Assembly (NCBI GenBank): GCA_030603365.1
Contig: JAUVXV010000014.1
Location: 59,752 to 123,751 of the forward strand
DNA: 64,000 nucleotides
DNA from: Candidatus Heimdallarchaeota archaeon
Lineage (GTDB): Archaea; Asgardarchaeota; Heimdallarchaeia; Heimdallarchaeales; Heimdallarchaeaceae
Direction of reading: 5' to 3'
Shown: in pieces, positions 45,369 to 54,238 of the stretch
Layout of the letters: each line of letters starts with the position of its first letter
How positions within the stretch are numbered: the first letter of the stretch is position 1
Program-made: the position numbers and the translations under genes
The notes under the pieces: model-generated
Databases searched by the model: none
Told to the model about the DNA's origin: nothing
What the model saw: the letters and a program-made list of their open reading frames with translations, nothing else

Positions 45369-45632
45369 TTAATAGAATGTTCCTACTACCCTAAACTTTA
45401 ATCCTAAAGCTTTAATCCTTTCTTTTTCAAGATCTTTCTTTATTTGATAATTCTGATAAATTCTCTTTGCAGGACATTCTTCATCATTATACTGACATTC
45501 GAACAATGTTTCAGCTAACTGATCTATTAAGCTGAAAAGTTCGTCTTCTTTCTCAAATTCAAAGTTATTTAATTCTTTTATATTTTTGAAAGATCTCTTG
45601 AAGATGCTTTTATATTCTGATTTTAGTACCAT
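45369..45632 (-). CDS. Small protein A (87 aa), partner family of the wHTH cluster
   Basis: ATG at 45632 with AGGTGG SD; paralog of 45739..46002 and 53999..54238. Confidence 0.7.
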   Translation of the reverse strand: MVLKSEYKSIFKRSFKNIKELNNFEFEKEDELFSLIDQLAETLFECQYNDEECPAKRIYQNYQIKKDLEKERIKALGLKFRVVGTFY

Positions 45633-45738
45633 TACTACCACCTATATTATTTTCTTATATTGTATTCTTAATATACAATGCTCACAACTTGTCAACACAA
45701 TTTGTGTTATTCATACTAAAAGAAAGGTAGATGAGTAA

Positions 45739-46002
45739 TCAAAGTAAAGATCCCTTATGCAGAAGTAGTTTTGTCATGCTTTTGTTTCTTTCTTCAGAGA
45801 AAGATTGACGGAGGAGATGCTGCTCATAGATGTGATAATCAGCAGAATACTCGTTGGCTAGGTTGTAATTAAACATATTCTCTGCAACCTGTGTGAGGAG
45901 TTGAAACAAGTTCTCTTCTTCATCAAACTCATACTTATACAGTTCCTTTAGAGCTTCGAAACTTCTTATTAATTCATATTTTTGTTCAACTTTTAATACC
46001 AC
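45739..46002 (-). CDS. Small protein B (87 aa), partner family of the wHTH cluster
   Basis: GTG at 46002 with GGTGA SD gives MVLK..., the same start and length as protein A. Confidence 0.7.
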   Translation of the reverse strand: MVLKVEQKYELIRSFEALKELYKYEFDEEENLFQLLTQVAENMFNYNLANEYSADYHIYEQHLLRQSFSEERNKSMTKLLLHKGSLL

Positions 46003-46043
46003 TTTTTTTTCACCCGAGATATTTTTGTGTTTTTTAGAGGATA

Positions 46044-46060
46044 TTCTCAACCTCTGAGAA
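46044..46060. promoter_or_regulatory. Palindromic operator TTCTCA-N5-TGAGAA
   Basis: TTCTCAacctcTGAGAA, downstream of the minus-strand TATA (TTTATATA, 46084-46077) of gene B. Confidence 0.7.
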
Positions 46061-46087
46061 CATAGTCCCACTGCAATATATAAATCT

Positions 46088-46104
46088 TTCTTATACTGTG
46101 AGAA
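46088..46104. promoter_or_regulatory. Second operator copy TTCTTA-N5-TGAGAA
   Basis: TTCTTAtactgTGAGAA on the other side of the same TATA box. Confidence 0.65.
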
Positions 46105-46193
46105 TACCAGTCCATTGTTGTAGAATATCTTCTTTGTCCCACAGAAACATATATATATTCCTATACTTTAAATTTAATTGGTGAAGAAGAAAA

Positions 46194-47024
46194 ATGAGCC
46201 TACCAGAGCCACAAGATGTAATAACGTATGAACAAAAACCTATAGAAATTGTCAAAGAAAGAGAGAAAGTGGAAATGTTTTATGACCAAGGATATTGGCC
46301 AATTCTGGTAATTTTGCGAGAGGGACCTTTAACAGTTAGAGAAATGACTGTGAAATCTAATATTTTAATCGAGAAAAAAGTTAGACCTGAACTTGATAAA
46401 AAATTTAAAGATTATCAAGTGACTAAGGAAAAACTAGAAGATATTTTGAAGAAAATAACAACTTTTACTGCTGAAGAGAAAAAGCAGTTGAGGGATAAAA
46501 AAACATTGTCTGAATCCGATAAAAAACTAGTTATTGACAGAATTAAAGATTATAAGTTAAGCAAAGAGCAAAAATCAGAAAAAACTATTTATCGCTATGT
46601 GAAGGATTTGTCTCTAGCAGAGCTAATTGTAGCTGCGGGACAAAGAGTAATTATTGGTAAGACTGCCACAGAAACGCTTTATGCTAGAAAAGCAAAAATT
46701 TTCATTATTCGTCAACACTCCGATGACACTTGGAACTGTGAAGAATGTAAAACAACTTTAGATAAAGTTGGAAAACTATTAGCTTTATCGATGGATATCA
46801 AGCAACCAAAGGTAGAACATCTTGCAAAATTAATGTCTTCCATTGACATGTTTCATGAAGATGAGCAAATACGTTTATTTGAACAATTTGATGATGAAGT
46901 TAAAAGAATTATTAAGGATTGCTCGTTCAAGGAAACTAATCACCTATTAACAACTTTTAAGTCAATATACCTAGTATTGAAAGCTGAAGAATTTAAAGAA
47001 GAAATAAAGAGTTGTTTCAAATAG
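46194..47024 (+). CDS. Winged-HTH regulator W1 (paralog family, with long insert)
   Basis: DVITYEQK...GPLTVREM...KSEKTIYRYVKDL...GQRVIIGKTATETLYARKAK. Confidence 0.75.
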   Translation: MSLPEPQDVITYEQKPIEIVKEREKVEMFYDQGYWPILVILREGPLTVREMTVKSNILIEKKVRPELDKKFKDYQVTKEKLEDILKKITTFTAEEKKQLRDKKTLSESDKKLVIDRIKDYKLSKEQKSEKTIYRYVKDLSLAELIVAAGQRVIIGKTATETLYARKAKIFIIRQHSDDTWNCEECKTTLDKVGKLLALSMDIKQPKVEHLAKLMSSIDMFHEDEQIRLFEQFDDEVKRIIKDCSFKETNHLLTTFKSIYLVLKAEEFKEEIKSCFK

Positions 47025-47106
47025 AAGCAAACTCTTATACTACAATTTTTTAATCCTTGTTTTTGAGACAAACTTTTAAGAAATAGTTTTCATTTATTCT
47101 TTTAAC

Positions 47107-47790
47107 ATGGAACACAGAGATTTTCTTGATACTGAATTTAAGCCTGATGGGATAAAAACCATTAGGGACCCCAAGATTATTGAGTATTTTGAAGATGAAA
47201 ATTTCTCTGTAATTCTAAATGTTTTAAGAGAAAAACCTATGACAGTTAAAGAATTAACTCAAAGATACAATGATTATGTTACTGAAAGAGCAACAAAACA
47301 GAGATTACCTCAGGAACGTATTCTCGAGAAACTTCGCACCAATAAAACCATGTATAGATACATCAAAGAGCTAACTAAGGTGAAATTGATAGCACCAGCT
47401 GGTCAGAGGATGGTCATAGGTAAAACAGCCACAGAAGTGTTATATGACAGAACTGCAAGGATTTTTTATACCAGTCAAGAATCACTAGATTGGTGGGTGG
47501 GAGAAAATGGAAAGAGGACTACAGCTGCATCAGGGGGATTGATCAGCCTTACATTAAATACATCCGCTCCTAAAGGTGATTGCTTAGCAAAAATTATGCA
47601 AAAAATTGTTTCAGAAAACGAACAAGCAATGTTCAAGATTTTTGATGATAATCAAGAAGAAGTAACAAAACTCATCTACACACTTGAGGGGAGAGAAACA
47701 GATAGAGCTCTCTATGCAATGAATATATTGTTAGCAATTATCAATTCTGAAAAATATAAAAAAGAATTAGAGGAGTGTCTAGGAATTTAG
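47107..47790 (+). CDS. Winged-HTH regulator W2
   Basis: PMTVKELT...KTMYRYIKEL...GQRMVIGKTATEVLYDRTAR. Confidence 0.75.
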   Translation: MEHRDFLDTEFKPDGIKTIRDPKIIEYFEDENFSVILNVLREKPMTVKELTQRYNDYVTERATKQRLPQERILEKLRTNKTMYRYIKELTKVKLIAPAGQRMVIGKTATEVLYDRTARIFYTSQESLDWWVGENGKRTTAASGGLISLTLNTSAPKGDCLAKIMQKIVSENEQAMFKIFDDNQEEVTKLIYTLEGRETDRALYAMNILLAIINSEKYKKELEECLGI

Positions 47791-47845
47791 CTTAACTTTG
47801 GCTTTTTGGCGAGTTAAATATATATAGTAGAACATTCTAGCCCTT

Positions 47846-48172
47846 TTGATGACAGAGATAGCTTATCATTTGCGTTGTGATTGTAAAAAAGCAGTGAATG
47901 CCTATTCCTGTCCAGTAGGGTTGCTCAAACCAACAACCAAGCATAACTATGATTACTATCATTGTCCACACTGTGATTTTGATTATATCTGTGATCATTC
48001 TATAAAAATAAAATTTGATTACGATGAGAAAGGTTTGCCAGAGCAAAATCAAATTGTGTGTAATAGATGCGGATCACAACTAGAAGCCTATTTATGGCCT
48101 AAGCAAGCAGAAGAGCTTGAAGAAGGAGCTTATGGTACTAAGTATGTAAGCATCTACAGACGAAACTATTAA
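47846..48172 (+). CDS. Small Cys-rich protein, paralog of 33336..33593
   Basis: HLRCDC...C...YYHCPHCDFDYIC...CNRC...WP. Confidence 0.65.
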   Translation: MMTEIAYHLRCDCKKAVNAYSCPVGLLKPTTKHNYDYYHCPHCDFDYICDHSIKIKFDYDEKGLPEQNQIVCNRCGSQLEAYLWPKQAEELEEGAYGTKYVSIYRRNY

Positions 48173-48417
48173 TTTCATTCGGACGGAGAATGTGTAATAC
48201 AGAGGTGATACTTTTCTTACATTTCATTTATAAAGGATGAAAAAAACGCAAGATTCTATAGATTATCTAGATTCTAATTAGAAAAGCTTTGTTTTTCTCT
48301 GACTCCTAACCATGTTCATAGTAGATTAAATTATTTTTGGAATTTTTATAAAAAAATTTCTTGTTTTTTTCACTTTTTTCCCAATTTTTAAAAGGAAGAA
48401 GAGAGATTGTTATTATA

Positions 48418-48930
48418 ATGAAAAGAAATCTTGCTTATTTATTGGTCGTAGTTGGGTTGATTCTTATTGTTTCAAATTCTACTGTTGCGGAAGCTGAATA
48501 TTATTCAATCAATATGGATTTGGAAATTACTGATTCCTATTATACCAATATAGAAGATGACAAGAATAAACCTGATGATGATATTATAATTGATTTTGAA
48601 GTAAATCTTGAATTTTATCAATACTTCTATGAAGACGATAATAATAATTTCATTGGAACTTATACATTATTTCAAGTAAAATTCAAAGTACAACTAATCT
48701 TACCTTCAGGTTTTGTGTATGAATATTCATTCTTGTTGTATATTTCAGTTGGTAATTCAGAATTTAGAATATATCTCTATAATCACGCTACTGAATCAGG
48801 ATGGTACATTGTGAAGATATGGGGAGTCTTAAGGTATACTCATATCTCAGTATATGATGAGATGATTTTCGATCCTCCAGGGCAAACTGGTGACACCGAT
48901 CCTCCAGAGATAGAATTCATTACATTGTAA
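48418..48930 (+). CDS. Secreted hypothetical protein
   Basis: Probable ATG at 48418; signal peptide MKRNLAYLLVVVGLILIV; beta-rich; C-terminal IFDPPG. Confidence 0.6.
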   Translation: MKRNLAYLLVVVGLILIVSNSTVAEAEYYSINMDLEITDSYYTNIEDDKNKPDDDIIIDFEVNLEFYQYFYEDDNNNFIGTYTLFQVKFKVQLILPSGFVYEYSFLLYISVGNSEFRIYLYNHATESGWYIVKIWGVLRYTHISVYDEMIFDPPGQTGDTDPPEIEFITL

Positions 48931-48997
48931 GACGACACAATAATATATAATGAAAGAATAAATAGATTCAGATTAATCAGATTCGGGGTGAACGAAG

Positions 48998-50101
48998 TTG
49001 AGTTTAAACACTAATGATCTTGCATTGCTTCTTGCACTGGAAGAGAACCCATTTATTACTATCACAAATTTAGCAGATAAACTCAAGCTTTCTCGTCCCA
49101 CTGTCAAAAAACGACTTGAAAATCTCAAAGATGCTGGGATGCTTGATAAACCAGTTGCACTATATAAACCAGAAAAAATAGGTTTAGAGAGAAAACATAT
49201 CTTTGCTACTGTTCCTAACCGAGAATCTTTAGAAGTAATGGAACAGGCTTGTGATAAGCACCCATACACTAAATATAGAGCAAGAACATTCGGGGGAAAA
49301 TTCGGAATTTATATGCAGTTTGAAATCCCCCCCAATACATCTAATCTGCTAAATGAATTCTTCAAAGCATTAAAAGAAGGGGATATATTAGACGATTTCA
49401 GAATATTATCAAGCACAGGATTAAGAGCTGTAACTTATCCTGATCTCAAAAAGTTTGATGCAAACAATCTTACATGGAATTTCTCCTGGGAAAAATGGTT
49501 TAAGTCGCTAAATAATTACACTTATACAATCAAGAACCAAATTAAACCAGAAACAGATTTTTCAAGCTATAAACCAATTCACTTTAGTATTTTGAGAGAC
49601 TTAACATCAGATGCTTCAATTAAACAAAAAGACATTAAGGATAACTTTAAACTAAGCAAAACTGAAGCTCATAGACATTATAAATATGTCATGGATAATT
49701 ATGTAGATAAAGTCAGACTAATGTATGACCGAAAATCATTCAATCTAACAGAGACATATATTGCTCTCGCAAGGATAGTAAATAATACTACCAGAGGACA
49801 AATTTACAATCAACTGAAAGAAAATCCACCACCATTTTATGTATCTATAGACTTACTAGAAGGTTCAAATTTTGTTATGTGGGGAAATATGAGCCCTGCT
49901 CAAGCTAATGAATTTGCTTTTTCTATCTGGAAAACTTTAGAAAATGTTGAGATTCATATCTTGAGTACAAAACATGGGGGATCAAGTATATATTGGTTCT
50001 ACCCAAATAATTTCGATTTTGATAAGGAAGAATGGAAGAAATCAAGAGAATATATGGTTACAAAACCATTAAAAGAGTTGAAAATAACTATCTCTGACTA
50101 A
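48998..50101 (+). CDS. Lrp/AsnC-like regulator with tandem HTH/RAM-like halves
   Basis: ENPFITITNLADKLKLSRPTVKKRLENL; second HTH at ILRDLTSDASIKQKDI. Confidence 0.75.
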   Translation: MSLNTNDLALLLALEENPFITITNLADKLKLSRPTVKKRLENLKDAGMLDKPVALYKPEKIGLERKHIFATVPNRESLEVMEQACDKHPYTKYRARTFGGKFGIYMQFEIPPNTSNLLNEFFKALKEGDILDDFRILSSTGLRAVTYPDLKKFDANNLTWNFSWEKWFKSLNNYTYTIKNQIKPETDFSSYKPIHFSILRDLTSDASIKQKDIKDNFKLSKTEAHRHYKYVMDNYVDKVRLMYDRKSFNLTETYIALARIVNNTTRGQIYNQLKENPPPFYVSIDLLEGSNFVMWGNMSPAQANEFAFSIWKTLENVEIHILSTKHGGSSIYWFYPNNFDFDKEEWKKSREYMVTKPLKELKITISD

Positions 50102-50128
50102 TCACCAATTTAATCAGTTAAGATTTTT

Positions 50129-50425
50129 TTAGCTTGTTTTTTCAAATAATTTATCAGAGTTGTTTGATGGATCAGAGTTGTAGACTAATTTCTTAAGTGT
50201 TTGATTGTTAAAAGAGTTCTGATTAAAGAACTTTAAATCAAATGTACCACAACATTTTGAACACTCACAGGATATAATATCATAATGATATCCATCTTCA
50301 ATAAGAGGCATACAATGTTGAGGATAACAACCTCCACTTTCTCTGCATTTTAAACAATACATTTTCTTAATAAAATATTTAGCATCTTCTGATTGTTCGA
50401 TTGGAATAATAAATTCATACACCAT
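50129..50425 (-). CDS. Small Cys-rich hypothetical protein
   Basis: CLKC...C...HC...CECSKCC. Confidence 0.5.
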   Translation of the reverse strand: MVYEFIIPIEQSEDAKYFIKKMYCLKCRESGGCYPQHCMPLIEDGYHYDIISCECSKCCGTFDLKFFNQNSFNNQTLKKLVYNSDPSNNSDKLFEKTS

Positions 50426-50577
50426 GGGTGGTCCTCTTTTCTAAATTAACTGATAGACATCCCCTATGAAACTATTGTCAAGTATATTATATAAATATTG
50501 CCATTTGTTCCAGTTTGTGTTTTTTAATGTATTCAGAATTCTTAAACTTTAAAAAAAAGTGTGCAAACTAGTCCCAC

Positions 50578-51402
50578 ATGGGAAAGAAGAAACCCCGTTA
50601 TGAGAAATTCTCTATAGAACGTCAGATACTAGCAAATTTCAATGAAATTATCTATCAGTTTCCGTTTATGAAAGGATTAGTGGAAGTGGATATAACTGAA
50701 GCTAGAAGGAAACTCAAAGAGTACTCAGAAAAGACAGACAACAGAATTTCATTCACGGGATGGATAATTAAAGCAACCAGCGAAGCAATCATGGAAAACA
50801 AGAGTATTCAGGCATATCGAGTTAGTAAAAGGAAGTTAGTAATTCCTGAAGAAGTTGATTTTGGAATCATGGTGGAAAGAAAAACACATGATGAAAAGAA
50901 AGTACCAGCGATGGAGATCATTAAATCAGCTCAAAGAAAAAGTGTGATTGAAATTTCTGATGAAATTAGACAGCTTCAAAACAAGATTATCAGTGAAGAA
51001 GAACAACTAATGGGTGAACAGAATTTTACTCGAAAACTCCAATACTTTCTCTTCTCGATTCTACCAAATTTCATAAGTAAGAAACTTATCAAGAGAATAG
51101 CTACAAATAAGAAATTCATCACTAAATTTAGCGGTACAGTAGGTGTTACAGCTTTAGGTATGTTTGGAAAAGGAAAAAGTGCTAGTGGTCATGTGATTCA
51201 TTTTCCCACTAGAACAATAGACTTAGCACTTGGAACAATAACAGCAAAACCAAGATATATAGAAGATAAGCTGGAAAAAAGAGAAATCTTGAATATGACA
51301 TTTTATATTGACCACAATATAGTAGATGGAGCTCCTGCAGCAAGATTCGTTTCACGAGCTATTGAATTGTTAGAAACCGCATTTGGATTAGAAGAATTGT
51401 GA
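50578..51402 (+). CDS. 2-oxoacid dehydrogenase acyltransferase catalytic-domain-only protein
   Basis: EVDIT, ISFTGWIIKA, DHNIVDGAPAARF (HxxxDG); no lipoyl domain. Confidence 0.85.
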   Translation: MGKKKPRYEKFSIERQILANFNEIIYQFPFMKGLVEVDITEARRKLKEYSEKTDNRISFTGWIIKATSEAIMENKSIQAYRVSKRKLVIPEEVDFGIMVERKTHDEKKVPAMEIIKSAQRKSVIEISDEIRQLQNKIISEEEQLMGEQNFTRKLQYFLFSILPNFISKKLIKRIATNKKFITKFSGTVGVTALGMFGKGKSASGHVIHFPTRTIDLALGTITAKPRYIEDKLEKREILNMTFYIDHNIVDGAPAARFVSRAIELLETAFGLEEL

Positions 51403-51428
51403 TATTGCAAACAATGTAAATAGATTAA

Positions 51429-52061
51429 TTATGGAAAACATTTTTTGAGTTCATTGGCATATTTCTCTGGTTCTAGTAGAATCATTACTAAAGAGAATAG
51501 ATTAACAGTTTCTCTTACTTCTTCTTGAGAACTGTCAGCGAGTATGGTTTTCAATGAATCACCATAACTAGTTACAAACTCTTTCAATTTGAGTGAGGAT
51601 ACAGAATATATATTTTGAAGTAATGCTTTAAGATCGCTGGAAGAAGGTGAATCTTCCCCGGTATGGAAGGAAACAAGAGATCGAGAGGCATCGAGTAACT
51701 CTTTACTCTCCTCAGTTTCCCAATATTTGTCTGTCATCAATACCATTGGGAACATCAATTGAGCCTTACGAGAAAACAGTTGGGTTGCAGATGTACTTCC
51801 ATAAGAAATTCTTTGTCCTGCAAGAATAACCAAATCTGCATCTTCTAATGTTTTGATATAGTTATAAATGGTAATTTCAGATTTAGGTTTAGGTATTCTT
51901 CTGTTGTATTCATAAGTTATTTCTCTAACTGTCATTGGTCCTTTTCTAAGTGTTTCTAAAAGAATAGCTAATTTGGGATCATTGTATGCTTTCAACTGTT
52001 TCTTACCCTCAATTAACATCAAAGGTTTCTGTTCAACAGTTATGTAATCGCCTAAACTCAT
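51429..52061 (-). CDS. Winged-HTH regulator W3
   Basis: DYITVEQK...GPMTVREI...KSEITIYNYIKTL...GQRISYGSTSATQLFSRKAQ. Confidence 0.75.
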   Translation of the reverse strand: MSLGDYITVEQKPLMLIEGKKQLKAYNDPKLAILLETLRKGPMTVREITYEYNRRIPKPKSEITIYNYIKTLEDADLVILAGQRISYGSTSATQLFSRKAQLMFPMVLMTDKYWETEESKELLDASRSLVSFHTGEDSPSSSDLKALLQNIYSVSSLKLKEFVTSYGDSLKTILADSSQEEVRETVNLFSLVMILLEPEKYANELKKCFP

Positions 52062-52070
52062 TTAGTCAAC

Positions 52071-52745
52071 TCACTTATCTTTTAATTTTGAAGGGAAACA
52101 CGCCTTTAATTCGTCCTTATATGATTTTGAATTAAGAACCATTATCAACATATTTAGTACAGCTGTAGTTCGTGATAGTTGCCTGAAACTTAAAGGGGAA
52201 ACAATTTTATTAATCTTATCAGAATGCTCATTAAAAATCTTGCCAACTTCAGTATGGAAATTAGAAAATATATTGTGAAATAATGCAGTTAAATTCTCCT
52301 CAGAAAGACCTTCAGAAAGAGTATAGATATTCAGCATTTGATAGATTTTCGAGATGATAGATTTCCCCTGTCCAGTCGTCCAGTATTCTTCTGTCAATAC
52401 TGAGGAATAGTATAATTTTGCTCGTTTACCATAAAGAACCTCAGTAGCAGTTTTTCCACTTATTATTCTCTGCCCAGCCTTAATTATCAAATTCTTGTTT
52501 ATCAAATCCATCAAGTAATTGTAAATACTTGTTTGTTTTTTAGGAGACTCAGCAATTCGATTATATTCGGTTACAAGTTCTTTCAGGGTTAATGGACCAT
52601 GGTTTAAAGCTTCGAAAATGGGACTGTATTTTGAATCACTGAGTAAACGATATATTCCCTCTTCTTTAATTACAAAAACTTGTTCCTGCTCTTCTGTAAT
52701 GAAGTCCTTATGAAGCATTAATTCACGTCTAAGCTCAGTGCTCAA
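52071..52745 (-). CDS. Winged-HTH regulator W4
   Basis: DFITEEQ...GPLTLKEL...TSIYNYL...GQRIISGKTATEVLYGKRAK. Confidence 0.75.
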   Translation of the reverse strand: MSTELRRELMLHKDFITEEQEQVFVIKEEGIYRLLSDSKYSPIFEALNHGPLTLKELVTEYNRIAESPKKQTSIYNYLMDLINKNLIIKAGQRIISGKTATEVLYGKRAKLYYSSVLTEEYWTTGQGKSIISKIYQMLNIYTLSEGLSEENLTALFHNIFSNFHTEVGKIFNEHSDKINKIVSPLSFRQLSRTTAVLNMLIMVLNSKSYKDELKACFPSKLKDK

Positions 52746-52812
52746 GTAGATTTCACCTACCTAAATATAAATTTATCTTTTTTTTGAAAAACAATTTATA
52801 TTTTATGATAGA

Positions 52813-52833
52813 TATTCTCATAGTGTGAGAATA
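52813..52833. promoter_or_regulatory. Perfect operator TATTCTCA-N5-TGAGAATA
   Basis: Lies downstream of TATA TTTATATT (52795-52802) of small gene C. Confidence 0.7.
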
Positions 52834-52848
52834 AGAAGGATTGAGACT

Positions 52849-53127
52849 ATGGGAATCAAACAAGAGAACATTAAGAAAAGTCCATTCCAGATAGTATATG
52901 AACTATCGAAGAAACTTAACGAAGTTGAGGAACTAACAAAAGAAAAGCTGCTGGTCATCTTTGATGAAATGGCAGAAGAATTTGCTAGTGAAAGCTATGG
53001 ATACAGGTATATGCCGGAGTTCCTGATTAATTAAAAAGATTCTTCAGAAGAAAAAAAAACCACTAAAAAAAACCCTCCAAAAGATAATATAGTTCTTAAT
53101 GGAACCTTCTGTGCACTCTCACGCTAA
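52849..53127 (+). pseudogene. Small protein C, family member interrupted by in-frame TAA at 53032-53034
   Basis: N-terminal half resembles A/B (L..IFDEMAE). The same frame continues past TAA to IVLNGTFC, matching the family C-terminus (VVGTFY, LHFGTINF). Confidence 0.5.
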
Positions 53128-53193
53128 CTAAAAATTAATTACAAATGCTGATTTGATTGCTCACCTTTTCAAATCTTCATTTTTTTTCTTCAG

Positions 53194-53832
53194 TTAGCAA
53201 CCACATTTTTCAATATCTTTTGCGAAATCATCTCTGTGTATTAGCAGAATCAAAGTTGATAACACATCAAAGATTTTGTTTACTTCTTTGAATGAAAGTC
53301 CTGAAAGAGCTTTAGTGACCTCATCATCATTTTGATCAAAGAAATTTGCCATTTCTACAGAAGAGGTTTTAGAGGTAAGAGCTAAGAGATTACTCAAATT
53401 ATTAGAATTAATTTTCTCATCACTTTTATAAAGAGAGACGAGAGTTCTAAGAGGTTCAAGTAGTTTTTTACTATTATGAGTTTTCCAATAATCATCAGCA
53501 TCAGGTAAATTCCAGAAAATTTTTGCAGTACGACCATATAGAGTTTCAGATGCAGATTGACCTTTCTTAATTCGTTTACCAACTTCAGTAACAATATCTT
53601 CACGATCTAAATCTTTGACATAACGATAGATTGTCATTTCAGATTTTGGATCTTCTGCCATGAGATTATATTTTTCAACTAACTCTTTTATAGTAAGAGG
53701 GCTTTCCCTTAGTAAGATAATAATAGGCTCAATATTAGGATCGGAAAGTTTCCTAGTTAAATCCTCATCCCTTATCACTTTTACTCCCTTTTGTTCGTAT
53801 GTTATTACATCTTGAACATCTTGTGAATTCAT
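53194..53832 (-). CDS. Winged-HTH regulator W5
   Basis: QDVITYEQK...PLTIKELV...KSEMTIYRYVKDL...GKRIKKGQSASETLYGRTAK. Confidence 0.75.
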   Translation of the reverse strand: MNSQDVQDVITYEQKGVKVIRDEDLTRKLSDPNIEPIIILLRESPLTIKELVEKYNLMAEDPKSEMTIYRYVKDLDREDIVTEVGKRIKKGQSASETLYGRTAKIFWNLPDADDYWKTHNSKKLLEPLRTLVSLYKSDEKINSNNLSNLLALTSKTSSVEMANFFDQNDDEVTKALSGLSFKEVNKIFDVLSTLILLIHRDDFAKDIEKCGC

Positions 53833-53969
53833 TGTACCACTTTAATCGCTACCATAACATGTTTTTACAAACTAATAAATGTTTTTATAAGACATGTTGT
53901 GACAATTATCATAATATGTGGCGATTGTTTCATATAGAGAAACCTTTATTAACATTAATTGGTATATTG

Positions 53970-53986
53970 TTCTTAAGCAATGAGAA
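53970..53986. promoter_or_regulatory. Operator TTCTTA-N5-TGAGAA upstream of small gene D
   Basis: TTCTTAagcaaTGAGAA, 25 nt after the start of TATA TTTATTAA (53945). Confidence 0.7.
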
Positions 53987-53998
53987 TGGTGAAAGAAA

Positions 53999-54238
53999 AT
54001 GGCATCAATAACAATATCAAAAACTCAAAAAATATCAGACTTCAGGTTTAGGAAGGAAGAATCAATCTATGAGCGCCTTCAAGGATTAATTCAAGGTGCT
54101 AAGGGATTTCATTCAGAGGACAGATTTAACTACAACGAGGAATACAGTTCAGATAAAACTATTGAACAACAACTTCAAGCTCAAAAAGACAAAGCATTAA
54201 AACAAGCTTTACTTCACTTCGGAACAATCAACTTTTAG
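53999..54238 (+). CDS. Small protein D (79 aa), partner family of the wHTH cluster
   Basis: GGTGA SD; FRFRKEESIY...FNYNEEYS...KDKALKQALLHFGT aligns with A and B. Confidence 0.7.
   Translation: MASITISKTQKISDFRFRKEESIYERLQGLIQGAKGFHSEDRFNYNEEYSSDKTIEQQLQAQKDKALKQALLHFGTINF

Follow-up and report, generated by a model that had tools for sequence, protein, structure and literature searches.

The 64-kb stretch of Candidatus Heimdallarchaeota DNA analyzed here (the window, meaning the whole stretch at its full length) carries short genes, most of them divergent from genes for predicted winged helix-turn-helix (wHTH) proteins, and a palindrome of the form TTCTYA-N5-TGAGAA recurs in the promoters between them. 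The question that this locus raises is which factor recognizes the palindrome and with what effect on the flanking genes. A preliminary description of the sequence had proposed that the palindrome is the operator of wHTH dimers, that it lies over the transcription starts of the small genes and that the bound dimers act as repressors. In Asgard archaea, the prokaryotes most closely related to eukaryotes, the control of transcription at individual genes has hardly been studied by experiment. Below, the small genes are called A to D and their protein family S, and the wHTH genes are called W1 to W5 and their family W (Table 1).

Exploring the window with the pattern TTCTYA-N5-TGAGAA, we found four sites and no others, at the coordinates given for them before; that the motif had gone unnoticed by eye in the remaining intergenic regions agrees with this search. 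The four sites account for six strand matches where 0.15 would be expected, a count that was attained in no shuffle of the window out of 100, confirming that the palindrome TTCTCA-N5-TGAGAA is real and non-random in the window. It is often extended to TnTTCTCA-N5-TGAGAAnA. The 3.65-Mb assembly (33% GC), of which the window is part of contig 2, holds nine strict sites, and five of them, the four of the window and one on contig 12 (C12:14740), are in promoters beside W-family genes. These five lie within 170 nt upstream of W units; such regions make up about 1 kb of the 3.65 Mb, and by our binomial estimate the probability of five of nine sites falling there by chance is of the order of 1e-15. 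Varying the spacer of the exact sequence TTCTCA-Nx-TGAGAA from 0 to 12 yielded five occurrences genome-wide at x = 5 and between none and two at each other spacing.

Table 1. Genes and promoter elements of the palindrome-bearing region, in window coordinates (BRE, transcription factor B (TFB) recognition element)
Feature	Position	Strand	Remarks
Small gene A	45369..45632	-	87 aa; paralog of B; no TTCTCA-type operator ahead
Tandem palindrome, CACAAnTTGTG type, upstream of A	45680..45709	.	conserved; outside the TTCTCA operator family
Small gene B	45739..46005	-	88 aa from a GTG start; target of the dual operator
Proximal operator of B, TTCTCAacctcTGAGAA	46044..46060	.	centred on the predicted start site of B
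TATA box of B, TTTATATA	46077..46084	-	between the two operators; read directly and in the anchored alignment
Distal operator of B, TTCTTAtactgTGAGAA	46088..46104	.	ends 3 nt before the TATA of B, over the BRE position
W1, PH1932-like wHTH regulator	46194..47024	+	276 aa; insert inside the wHTH; divergent from B
W2, wHTH regulator paralog	47107..47790	+	227 aa; same strand as W1
W3, wHTH regulator paralog	51429..52061	-	210 aa
W4, wHTH regulator paralog	52071..52745	-	224 aa as called; divergent from C
Operator of C, TTCTCAtagtgTGAGAA	52815..52831	.	palindrome extends to 52813-52833
Small gene C	52849..53034	+	61 aa here, ended early by an in-frame TAA; orthologs 92 aa
W5, wHTH regulator paralog	53194..53832	-	212 aa; divergent from D; protein modelled
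Operator of D, TTCTTAagcaaTGAGAA	53970..53986	.	centre 21 nt before the ATG of D
Small gene D	53999..54238	+	79 aa; same family as A and B

Comparison with other Asgard genomes linked the palindrome to the W genes. We examined 20 syntenic loci from 18 genomes of the genus together with regions of the window's own genome, calling W genes with a hidden Markov model of the family, and found an operator with at most one mismatch 46-166 nt upstream of the leading W gene in 35 of 45 W transcription units; with up to two mismatches, an operator preceded the leading W gene in 40 of the 45. Individual sites were retained as well: the proximal operator of B at its orthologous position in 8 other genomes, the operator of C in L031-L033, L035, L037 and L038, and that of D, including an identical spacer, in L031, L033 and L003-L005. 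In a distant and probably Thor-like family (f16; 40-46% GC), 13 of 16 loci carried a perfect operator and the remaining three carried symmetric variants, e.g. ATCTCA-N5-TGAGAC. The f16 loci have, in addition, a second, half-degenerate site, and the two sites bracket the TATA and start site of W itself. No S-family gene was found at the f16 loci and the neighbours differ there, indicating that W is the only constant companion of the operator. The pairing of operator and W persists across paralogs of about 30% identity and across the shift in GC content.

W1-W5 share 25-33% identity with one another, and three further paralogs are encoded on contigs 12 (W6), 6 (W7) and 15 (W8). The start of W4 may be an ATG 9 codons further in than called. 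Pfam and NCBIfam scans of W1-W5 returned nothing above threshold; none of the five reached the Pfam gathering threshold of HTH_5 (PF01022) for ArsR/SmtB membership, W3 scoring 16.6 bits against a cut-off of 22 and W1, W2, W4 and W5 having no match, and in Atlas clusters of W relatives HTH_5 is found in 25-37% of the members. An AlphaFold2 (AF2) model of W5 built on 15 sequences (predicted local distance difference test score (pLDDT) 84.6) begins with two short strands, continues into a winged helix whose beta-wing is long and ends in a C-terminal domain of five helices. Searching the PDB with this model (Foldseek), we obtained as the only strong matches 1ULY and 2CWE (E 4e-10 and 3e-9), two structures of the Pyrococcus horikoshii protein PH1932, which was deposited under the name 'ArsR homologue DNA-binding protein'. 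The match is full-length, with a template modelling (TM) score of 0.59-0.66 and 22-23% identity over about 200 columns, and the best structural matches as a group are of the PH1932, PadR and ArsR types. A W family profile (A1) searched against PDB sequences also retrieved PH1932 (E 2.9e-7, 33.5 bits, profile positions 15-194). Judged by profile and predicted structure, W is remotely homologous to PH1932, an archaeal regulator of the ArsR type.

The family is small. In a set of 1.84 billion representatives it amounts to 403 clusters (50% identity), of which 312 had an E-value of 1e-10 or better; single genomes hold up to 12 matches, and the Atlas look-up placed W relatives in Heimdall, Thor and Hod clusters. 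W proteins were present in 54 of 151 sampled genomes of the phylum, in nearly all sampled genomes of the window's family and in 19 of 19 of f16. All close homologs of W5 are named hypothetical proteins of Heimdallarchaeota or Heimdallarchaeaceae metagenome-assembled genomes (MAGs); the genus of the window's genome includes MAG AB_125. W is a lineage-specific, unannotated family of Asgard two-domain winged-helix regulators. Its recognition helix, KSxKTIYRY[VL]K, and wing, AGQR..GKTATETL, are conserved over the same range as the half-site of the palindrome. About one fifth of the best family matches combine two complete W units in a single polypeptide of 450-520 aa (P0033, P0035, P0037 and others); such proteins come from public metagenomes, examples being the open frames of 500 aa and 517 aa in G165 and G162. 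Such proteins would be covalent pseudo-dimers of the regulator, which fits a dimeric working form.

To define the position of the palindrome relative to the core promoter, 42 promoters were anchored on it and read towards the divergent gene. The alignment revealed a purine-rich, BRE-like cgAAAc followed by TTTATATA (TTTATTAA in D-type promoters), which in most cases starts 23-24 nt before the first base of the operator. In the window the operator begins 24 nt past the first TATA base at B, 20 nt at C (TATA at 52795-52802) and 25 nt at D (TATA-like TTTATTAA at 53945-53952), so that the distance of 20-25 nt read by eye holds, as does the statement that two operators flank the TATA of B. From the operator centre to the ATG we measured 21-33 nt for D- and C-type genes and 46-60 nt for B-type genes. 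In archaea the start site lies about 26 nt from the centre of the TATA box; by this spacing, transcription is predicted to start at operator positions 6-8, and the fixed TATA-to-operator distance places the start site inside the palindrome. The distance from the operator to the W start codon varies threefold (46-166 nt) while that to the target is fixed, indicating that the fixed partner of the operator is the promoter of the divergent gene.

Four promoters, the stronger ones, carry a second operator 42-44 bp away: that of B (44 bp centre to centre), those of two weakly GNAT-like genes and that of a solute-binding protein gene (start C1:316725). The layout of the B promoter is matched at C6:22305/22347 and C1:316765/316809 and in L032, L034 and L038. 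The distal copy stops 3 nt short of the TATA and thereby lies over the BRE. Given that 42-44 bp correspond to about four helical turns, both dimers would face the same side of the DNA.

The most economical reading of this layout is that W represses by occlusion. A W dimer would insert its two recognition helices into successive major grooves, matching half-site centres that are 11 bp apart, and when bound over the start site it would block the recruitment of RNA polymerase. At dual-site promoters a second W dimer would also occlude the BRE and the contact with TFB, clamping the TATA from both sides. By the same logic, the two-site clamp on the W promoter in f16 points to classical autorepression. 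Cross-binding between W modules is plausible because the paralogs share the half-sites and have nearly the same recognition helix. Co-occurrence, conservation of the recognition helix, fused forms and promoter geometry, all obtained by comparative genomics, support the original proposal of a repressor operator over the small-gene starts, and we consider it probable that the palindrome is a deeply conserved docking site of W regulators from which they repress at the start site. The pairing offers a concrete regulator and operator, namely a site of 17-21 bp, a soluble protein of about 210 aa and a small regulon, conserved from Heimdall-group genomes to f16; it is testable with recombinant protein and synthetic DNA, with no need for culture, and it lends itself to the study of how a single operator is shared or divided up among many paralogs in nature.

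Several points weigh against this proposal. The genomes compared are relatives, so the counts of conserved sites are not independent trials, and the TATA-to-start spacing was taken from general archaeal promoters and is not an Asgard value. In the window's genus the core promoters of W itself appear to lie outside the operator and autoregulation is not evident. W8, on contig 15 (G000 C15:309000-309243, L055), has no N5 site; upstream of it are two N6-spaced look-alikes, TTCTTGacatgcTGAGAA and TTCTTAtcgtcaTGAGAA, possibly because its preferred spacing has shifted. A perfect site at C9:141669 is intragenic and has no target; with no downstream open reading frame (ORF), it was rejected as an operator and taken as a chance occurrence. 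Finally, sites with one mismatch number 32 genome-wide, which is background level (22-37 for other spacings and controls). The genome-wide enrichment foreseen in the preliminary description thus holds for the exact N5 form and for its placement by W genes and fails for the one-mismatch form, indicating that the signal resides in the position of the sites and not in their bulk frequency.

The same geometry could be read differently, with W binding the palindrome mainly as an activator or dual regulator that, for instance, stimulates its own divergent promoter. Archaeal wHTH and TrmB regulators such as SurR and TrmBL1 are known to act in either direction depending on where their site lies, the operator here lies upstream of the BRE/TATA of W itself at 46-166 nt from the W start codon, and the distal sites lie just upstream of a TATA. 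We consider this unlikely, since it is the divergent target that sits at a fixed distance (20-25 nt past the first TATA base, with the operator centre 21-60 nt before the ATG) while the distance to W is threefold variable, since the distal sites end 3 nt from the TATA and so cover the BRE rather than lying beside it, and since the f16 pair brackets the TATA and start site of W. It is very unlikely that W is merely co-located and that another factor binds the palindrome, be it the S proteins, a general factor or the HTH_24 protein encoded at 48998-50101; the presence of an AsnC/MarR-like gene inside the cluster speaks for such a role. The S family was found in only two genera of one family, whereas operator and W co-occur across the phylum, including at loci with quite different neighbours, and it is the recognition helix of W whose conservation parallels that of the half-sites.

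An inverted repeat that lies 12-40 nt before start codons and can fold into a fully paired 6-bp stem around a loop of 5 nt could also act as an RNA hairpin in the 5' untranslated region (UTR) of the small genes and control mRNA stability or translation. Aligning 48 sites (46 distinct) and counting the six putative stem pairs, we found no compensatory change: none of the six pairs altered on both sides in the 46 distinct sites, which span paralogs of about 30% identity and phylum-level distance. The only variable pair was U:G five times and the non-pairing C:A just as often. The absence of covariation and the equal numbers of U:G and C:A indicate a protein-DNA site. An Rfam search gave no match for the palindrome, the distal copies upstream of the TATA would stay untranscribed, and the predicted start site falls inside the repeat. 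The palindrome was therefore rejected as an RNA hairpin, a role that we regard as extremely improbable. By contrast, an adjacent hairpin in B-type 5'UTRs (window 46036-46055, minus strand) does covary. There, the operator spacer together with the bases that follow it (AGAGG) forms a stem with CCTCT 10 nt downstream, and the pairing is maintained as AGAGG/CCTCT, AGAGAC/GTCTCT and TAGCGC/GCGCTA among the orthologs (besides the window, L031, L032, L034, L036, L038, L044, L045 and L046; the individual fold z-scores are weak). Its 5' arm begins at operator position 6 in nine of nine orthologs. This is a probable 5'-terminal mRNA hairpin, and the position of its arm independently fits a start site inside the palindrome. 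That the operators are chance AT-rich palindromes, as the background frequency of one-mismatch versions might suggest, is already refuted by their positional conservation at orthologous and paralogous promoters across the GC change, and its probability is negligible.

If W represses at the palindrome, its targets would be the S-family genes B, C and D, the D-like gene of contig 12, two weakly GNAT-like genes and a family-5 solute-binding protein. The earlier view that the small genes are the targets thus stands for B, C and D, and the predicted regulon is wider. On contig 12, the site at C12:14740 is 15 nt before the ATG of the D-like gene, which encodes 78 aa and is divergent from W6. At W7, two one-mismatch copies lie on either side of the TATA of a weakly GNAT-like gene that is divergent from it. 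Of the weakly GNAT-like genes with operator-bearing promoters, one is at C6:22387-23286 and the other, its paralog, at C3. The solute-binding protein gene on contig 1 belongs to SBP_bac_5 (Pfam E 5e-17) and is under the operator in six genomes; its five closest orthologs (76-86% identity) retain the site 48-55 nt before the ATG, and more distant paralogs are without it.

Three further elements were observed at promoters of these genes. Directly upstream of the TATA-like stretch of W1 (window 46131-46147) is an TTCTTTgtcccACAGAA element (TTCT-N9-AGAA), which is kept in four orthologous loci; these are closely related, so the evidence is weak, and a weak or variant site for control of the W1-W2 promoter is one possible role of the element. 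Several paralogs of the solute-binding protein (L140-L142) have an inverted pair, TTCCACT...AGTGGAA, ahead of them, and some C-type genes repeatedly show the motif AGTGGAAG in their long 5'UTRs (L031:6815-6900, L035 ~2779, L037 ~2386 and L039 ~2881). The inverted pair and AGTGGAAG may represent a further regulatory element of these genes.

Known systems resemble the proposed W system in part. A 'PH1932' winged-helix family of SCOP is listed in PMC6316755. Like W, PH1932 has the two-domain architecture over its whole length, and the two share the TIY motif in the recognition helix and a YGRTA strand in the wing; W differs in having a conserved C-terminal Cys motif of its own and in its large number of copies. 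To our knowledge, no operator or regulon of PH1932 is known; in a literature search we found no paper on Heimdall operators, and the PH1932 papers found give no operator. MDR1 of Archaeoglobus and Phr and LrpA of Pyrococcus are repressors that prevent the recruitment of polymerase from sites at the TATA box or downstream of it. As proposed for W, they are wHTH-type dimers on a palindromic operator that covers the start site downstream of an intact BRE/TATA. Unlike them, W belongs to another protein family, has many paralogs on one operator and a second copy over the BRE at some promoters, and its targets include small proteins of a family that is otherwise unknown. SurR and TrmBL1 of the Thermococcales are position-dependent repressor/activators and, as in the W system, use one palindrome at several promoters, among them divergent ones, with an effect predicted from its position relative to BRE and TATA. 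They have no sequence or fold relation to W beyond the winged helix.

The candidates for the signal that releases W are the C-terminus of S, a solute, and redox or metal acting through Cys. A near-invariant Cys is found 2-3 residues from the W C-terminus (as xCF or CGC) across the phylum, in W5 at window 53194-53205, and f16 members have two more conserved Cys (WxC and one in mid-domain). The C-terminal Cys is a possible redox or metal switch. The candidacy of S recalls the RRNPP systems of Firmicutes (Rgg/SHP, PlcR/PapR, and PrgX with the OppA-like PrgZ), in which the regulator is likewise encoded beside a small gene; S proteins are most conserved at their extreme C-terminus, LLHxG[ST]F, and a family-5 (OppA-type) binding protein is under the same operator. 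W is unlike RRNPP regulators in having no TPR domain (the Pfam scan found no TPR family among W1-W5), in its DNA-binding fold and in the domain of life in which it occurs. By this analogy, the LLHxG[ST]F end of S, either inside the cell or after release and re-import, would be a ligand of the C-terminal domain of W whose binding lifts repression at the shared operator. No signal peptide, export signal or evidence of processing was found in the S proteins. That W, S and the solute-binding protein form an archaeal counterpart of RRNPP peptide signalling is an unlikely proposal; if true, the paralog pairs would be several parallel channels able to cross-talk.

The S proteins themselves gave no match above threshold in Pfam and NCBIfam scans of A to D. 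An iterative search united A, B, D, the contig-12 gene and loose copies on contigs 13 and 7; C joined weakly and only with A as seed (E 8e-4). In the sampled phylum, the two genera that carry the family belong to the family of the window's genome, and LLHxG[ST]F is the only near-invariant part. A predicted model of small protein B shows three helices (pLDDT 71; predicted TM score (pTM) 0.32), too weak for a fold search, and the Atlas held no credible relatives of it. In C, the in-frame TAA is at 53032-53034 and the C-terminal part of the family continues in frame after it (window 52849-53112); given this and the length of the orthologs, C is here either truncated, in decay or translated by read-through, and yet its operator is perfect. 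In one relative a lysine-rich S version of 34 aa with the same C-terminus directly follows an operator, and lysine-rich ORFs of 34-40 aa ending in LLVRGSFL or LHSSSFL were observed after operators at L042:4260-4395, L045 ~1013 and L042 ~2672. These look like minimal S versions that keep only the C-terminal motif.

Gene A stands apart from the other small genes. A degenerate operator copy, TGCTCAcaactTGTCAA, had been described before it at 45679-45695; the string is present at this position, and we rejected it as an operator copy since it has 3 mismatches, sites of this quality number 3356 genome-wide and the orthologs keep another motif. That motif is the tandem palindrome of the CACAAnTTGTG type, which is kept at the orthologous position in seven other genomes (eight in all). 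The different motif indicates that A is probably under its own control or co-transcribed with B. The tandem could be recognized by a different regulator or by a W paralog whose specificity has changed, and a similar CACAAnTTGTG tandem was observed at G000 C17:34148.

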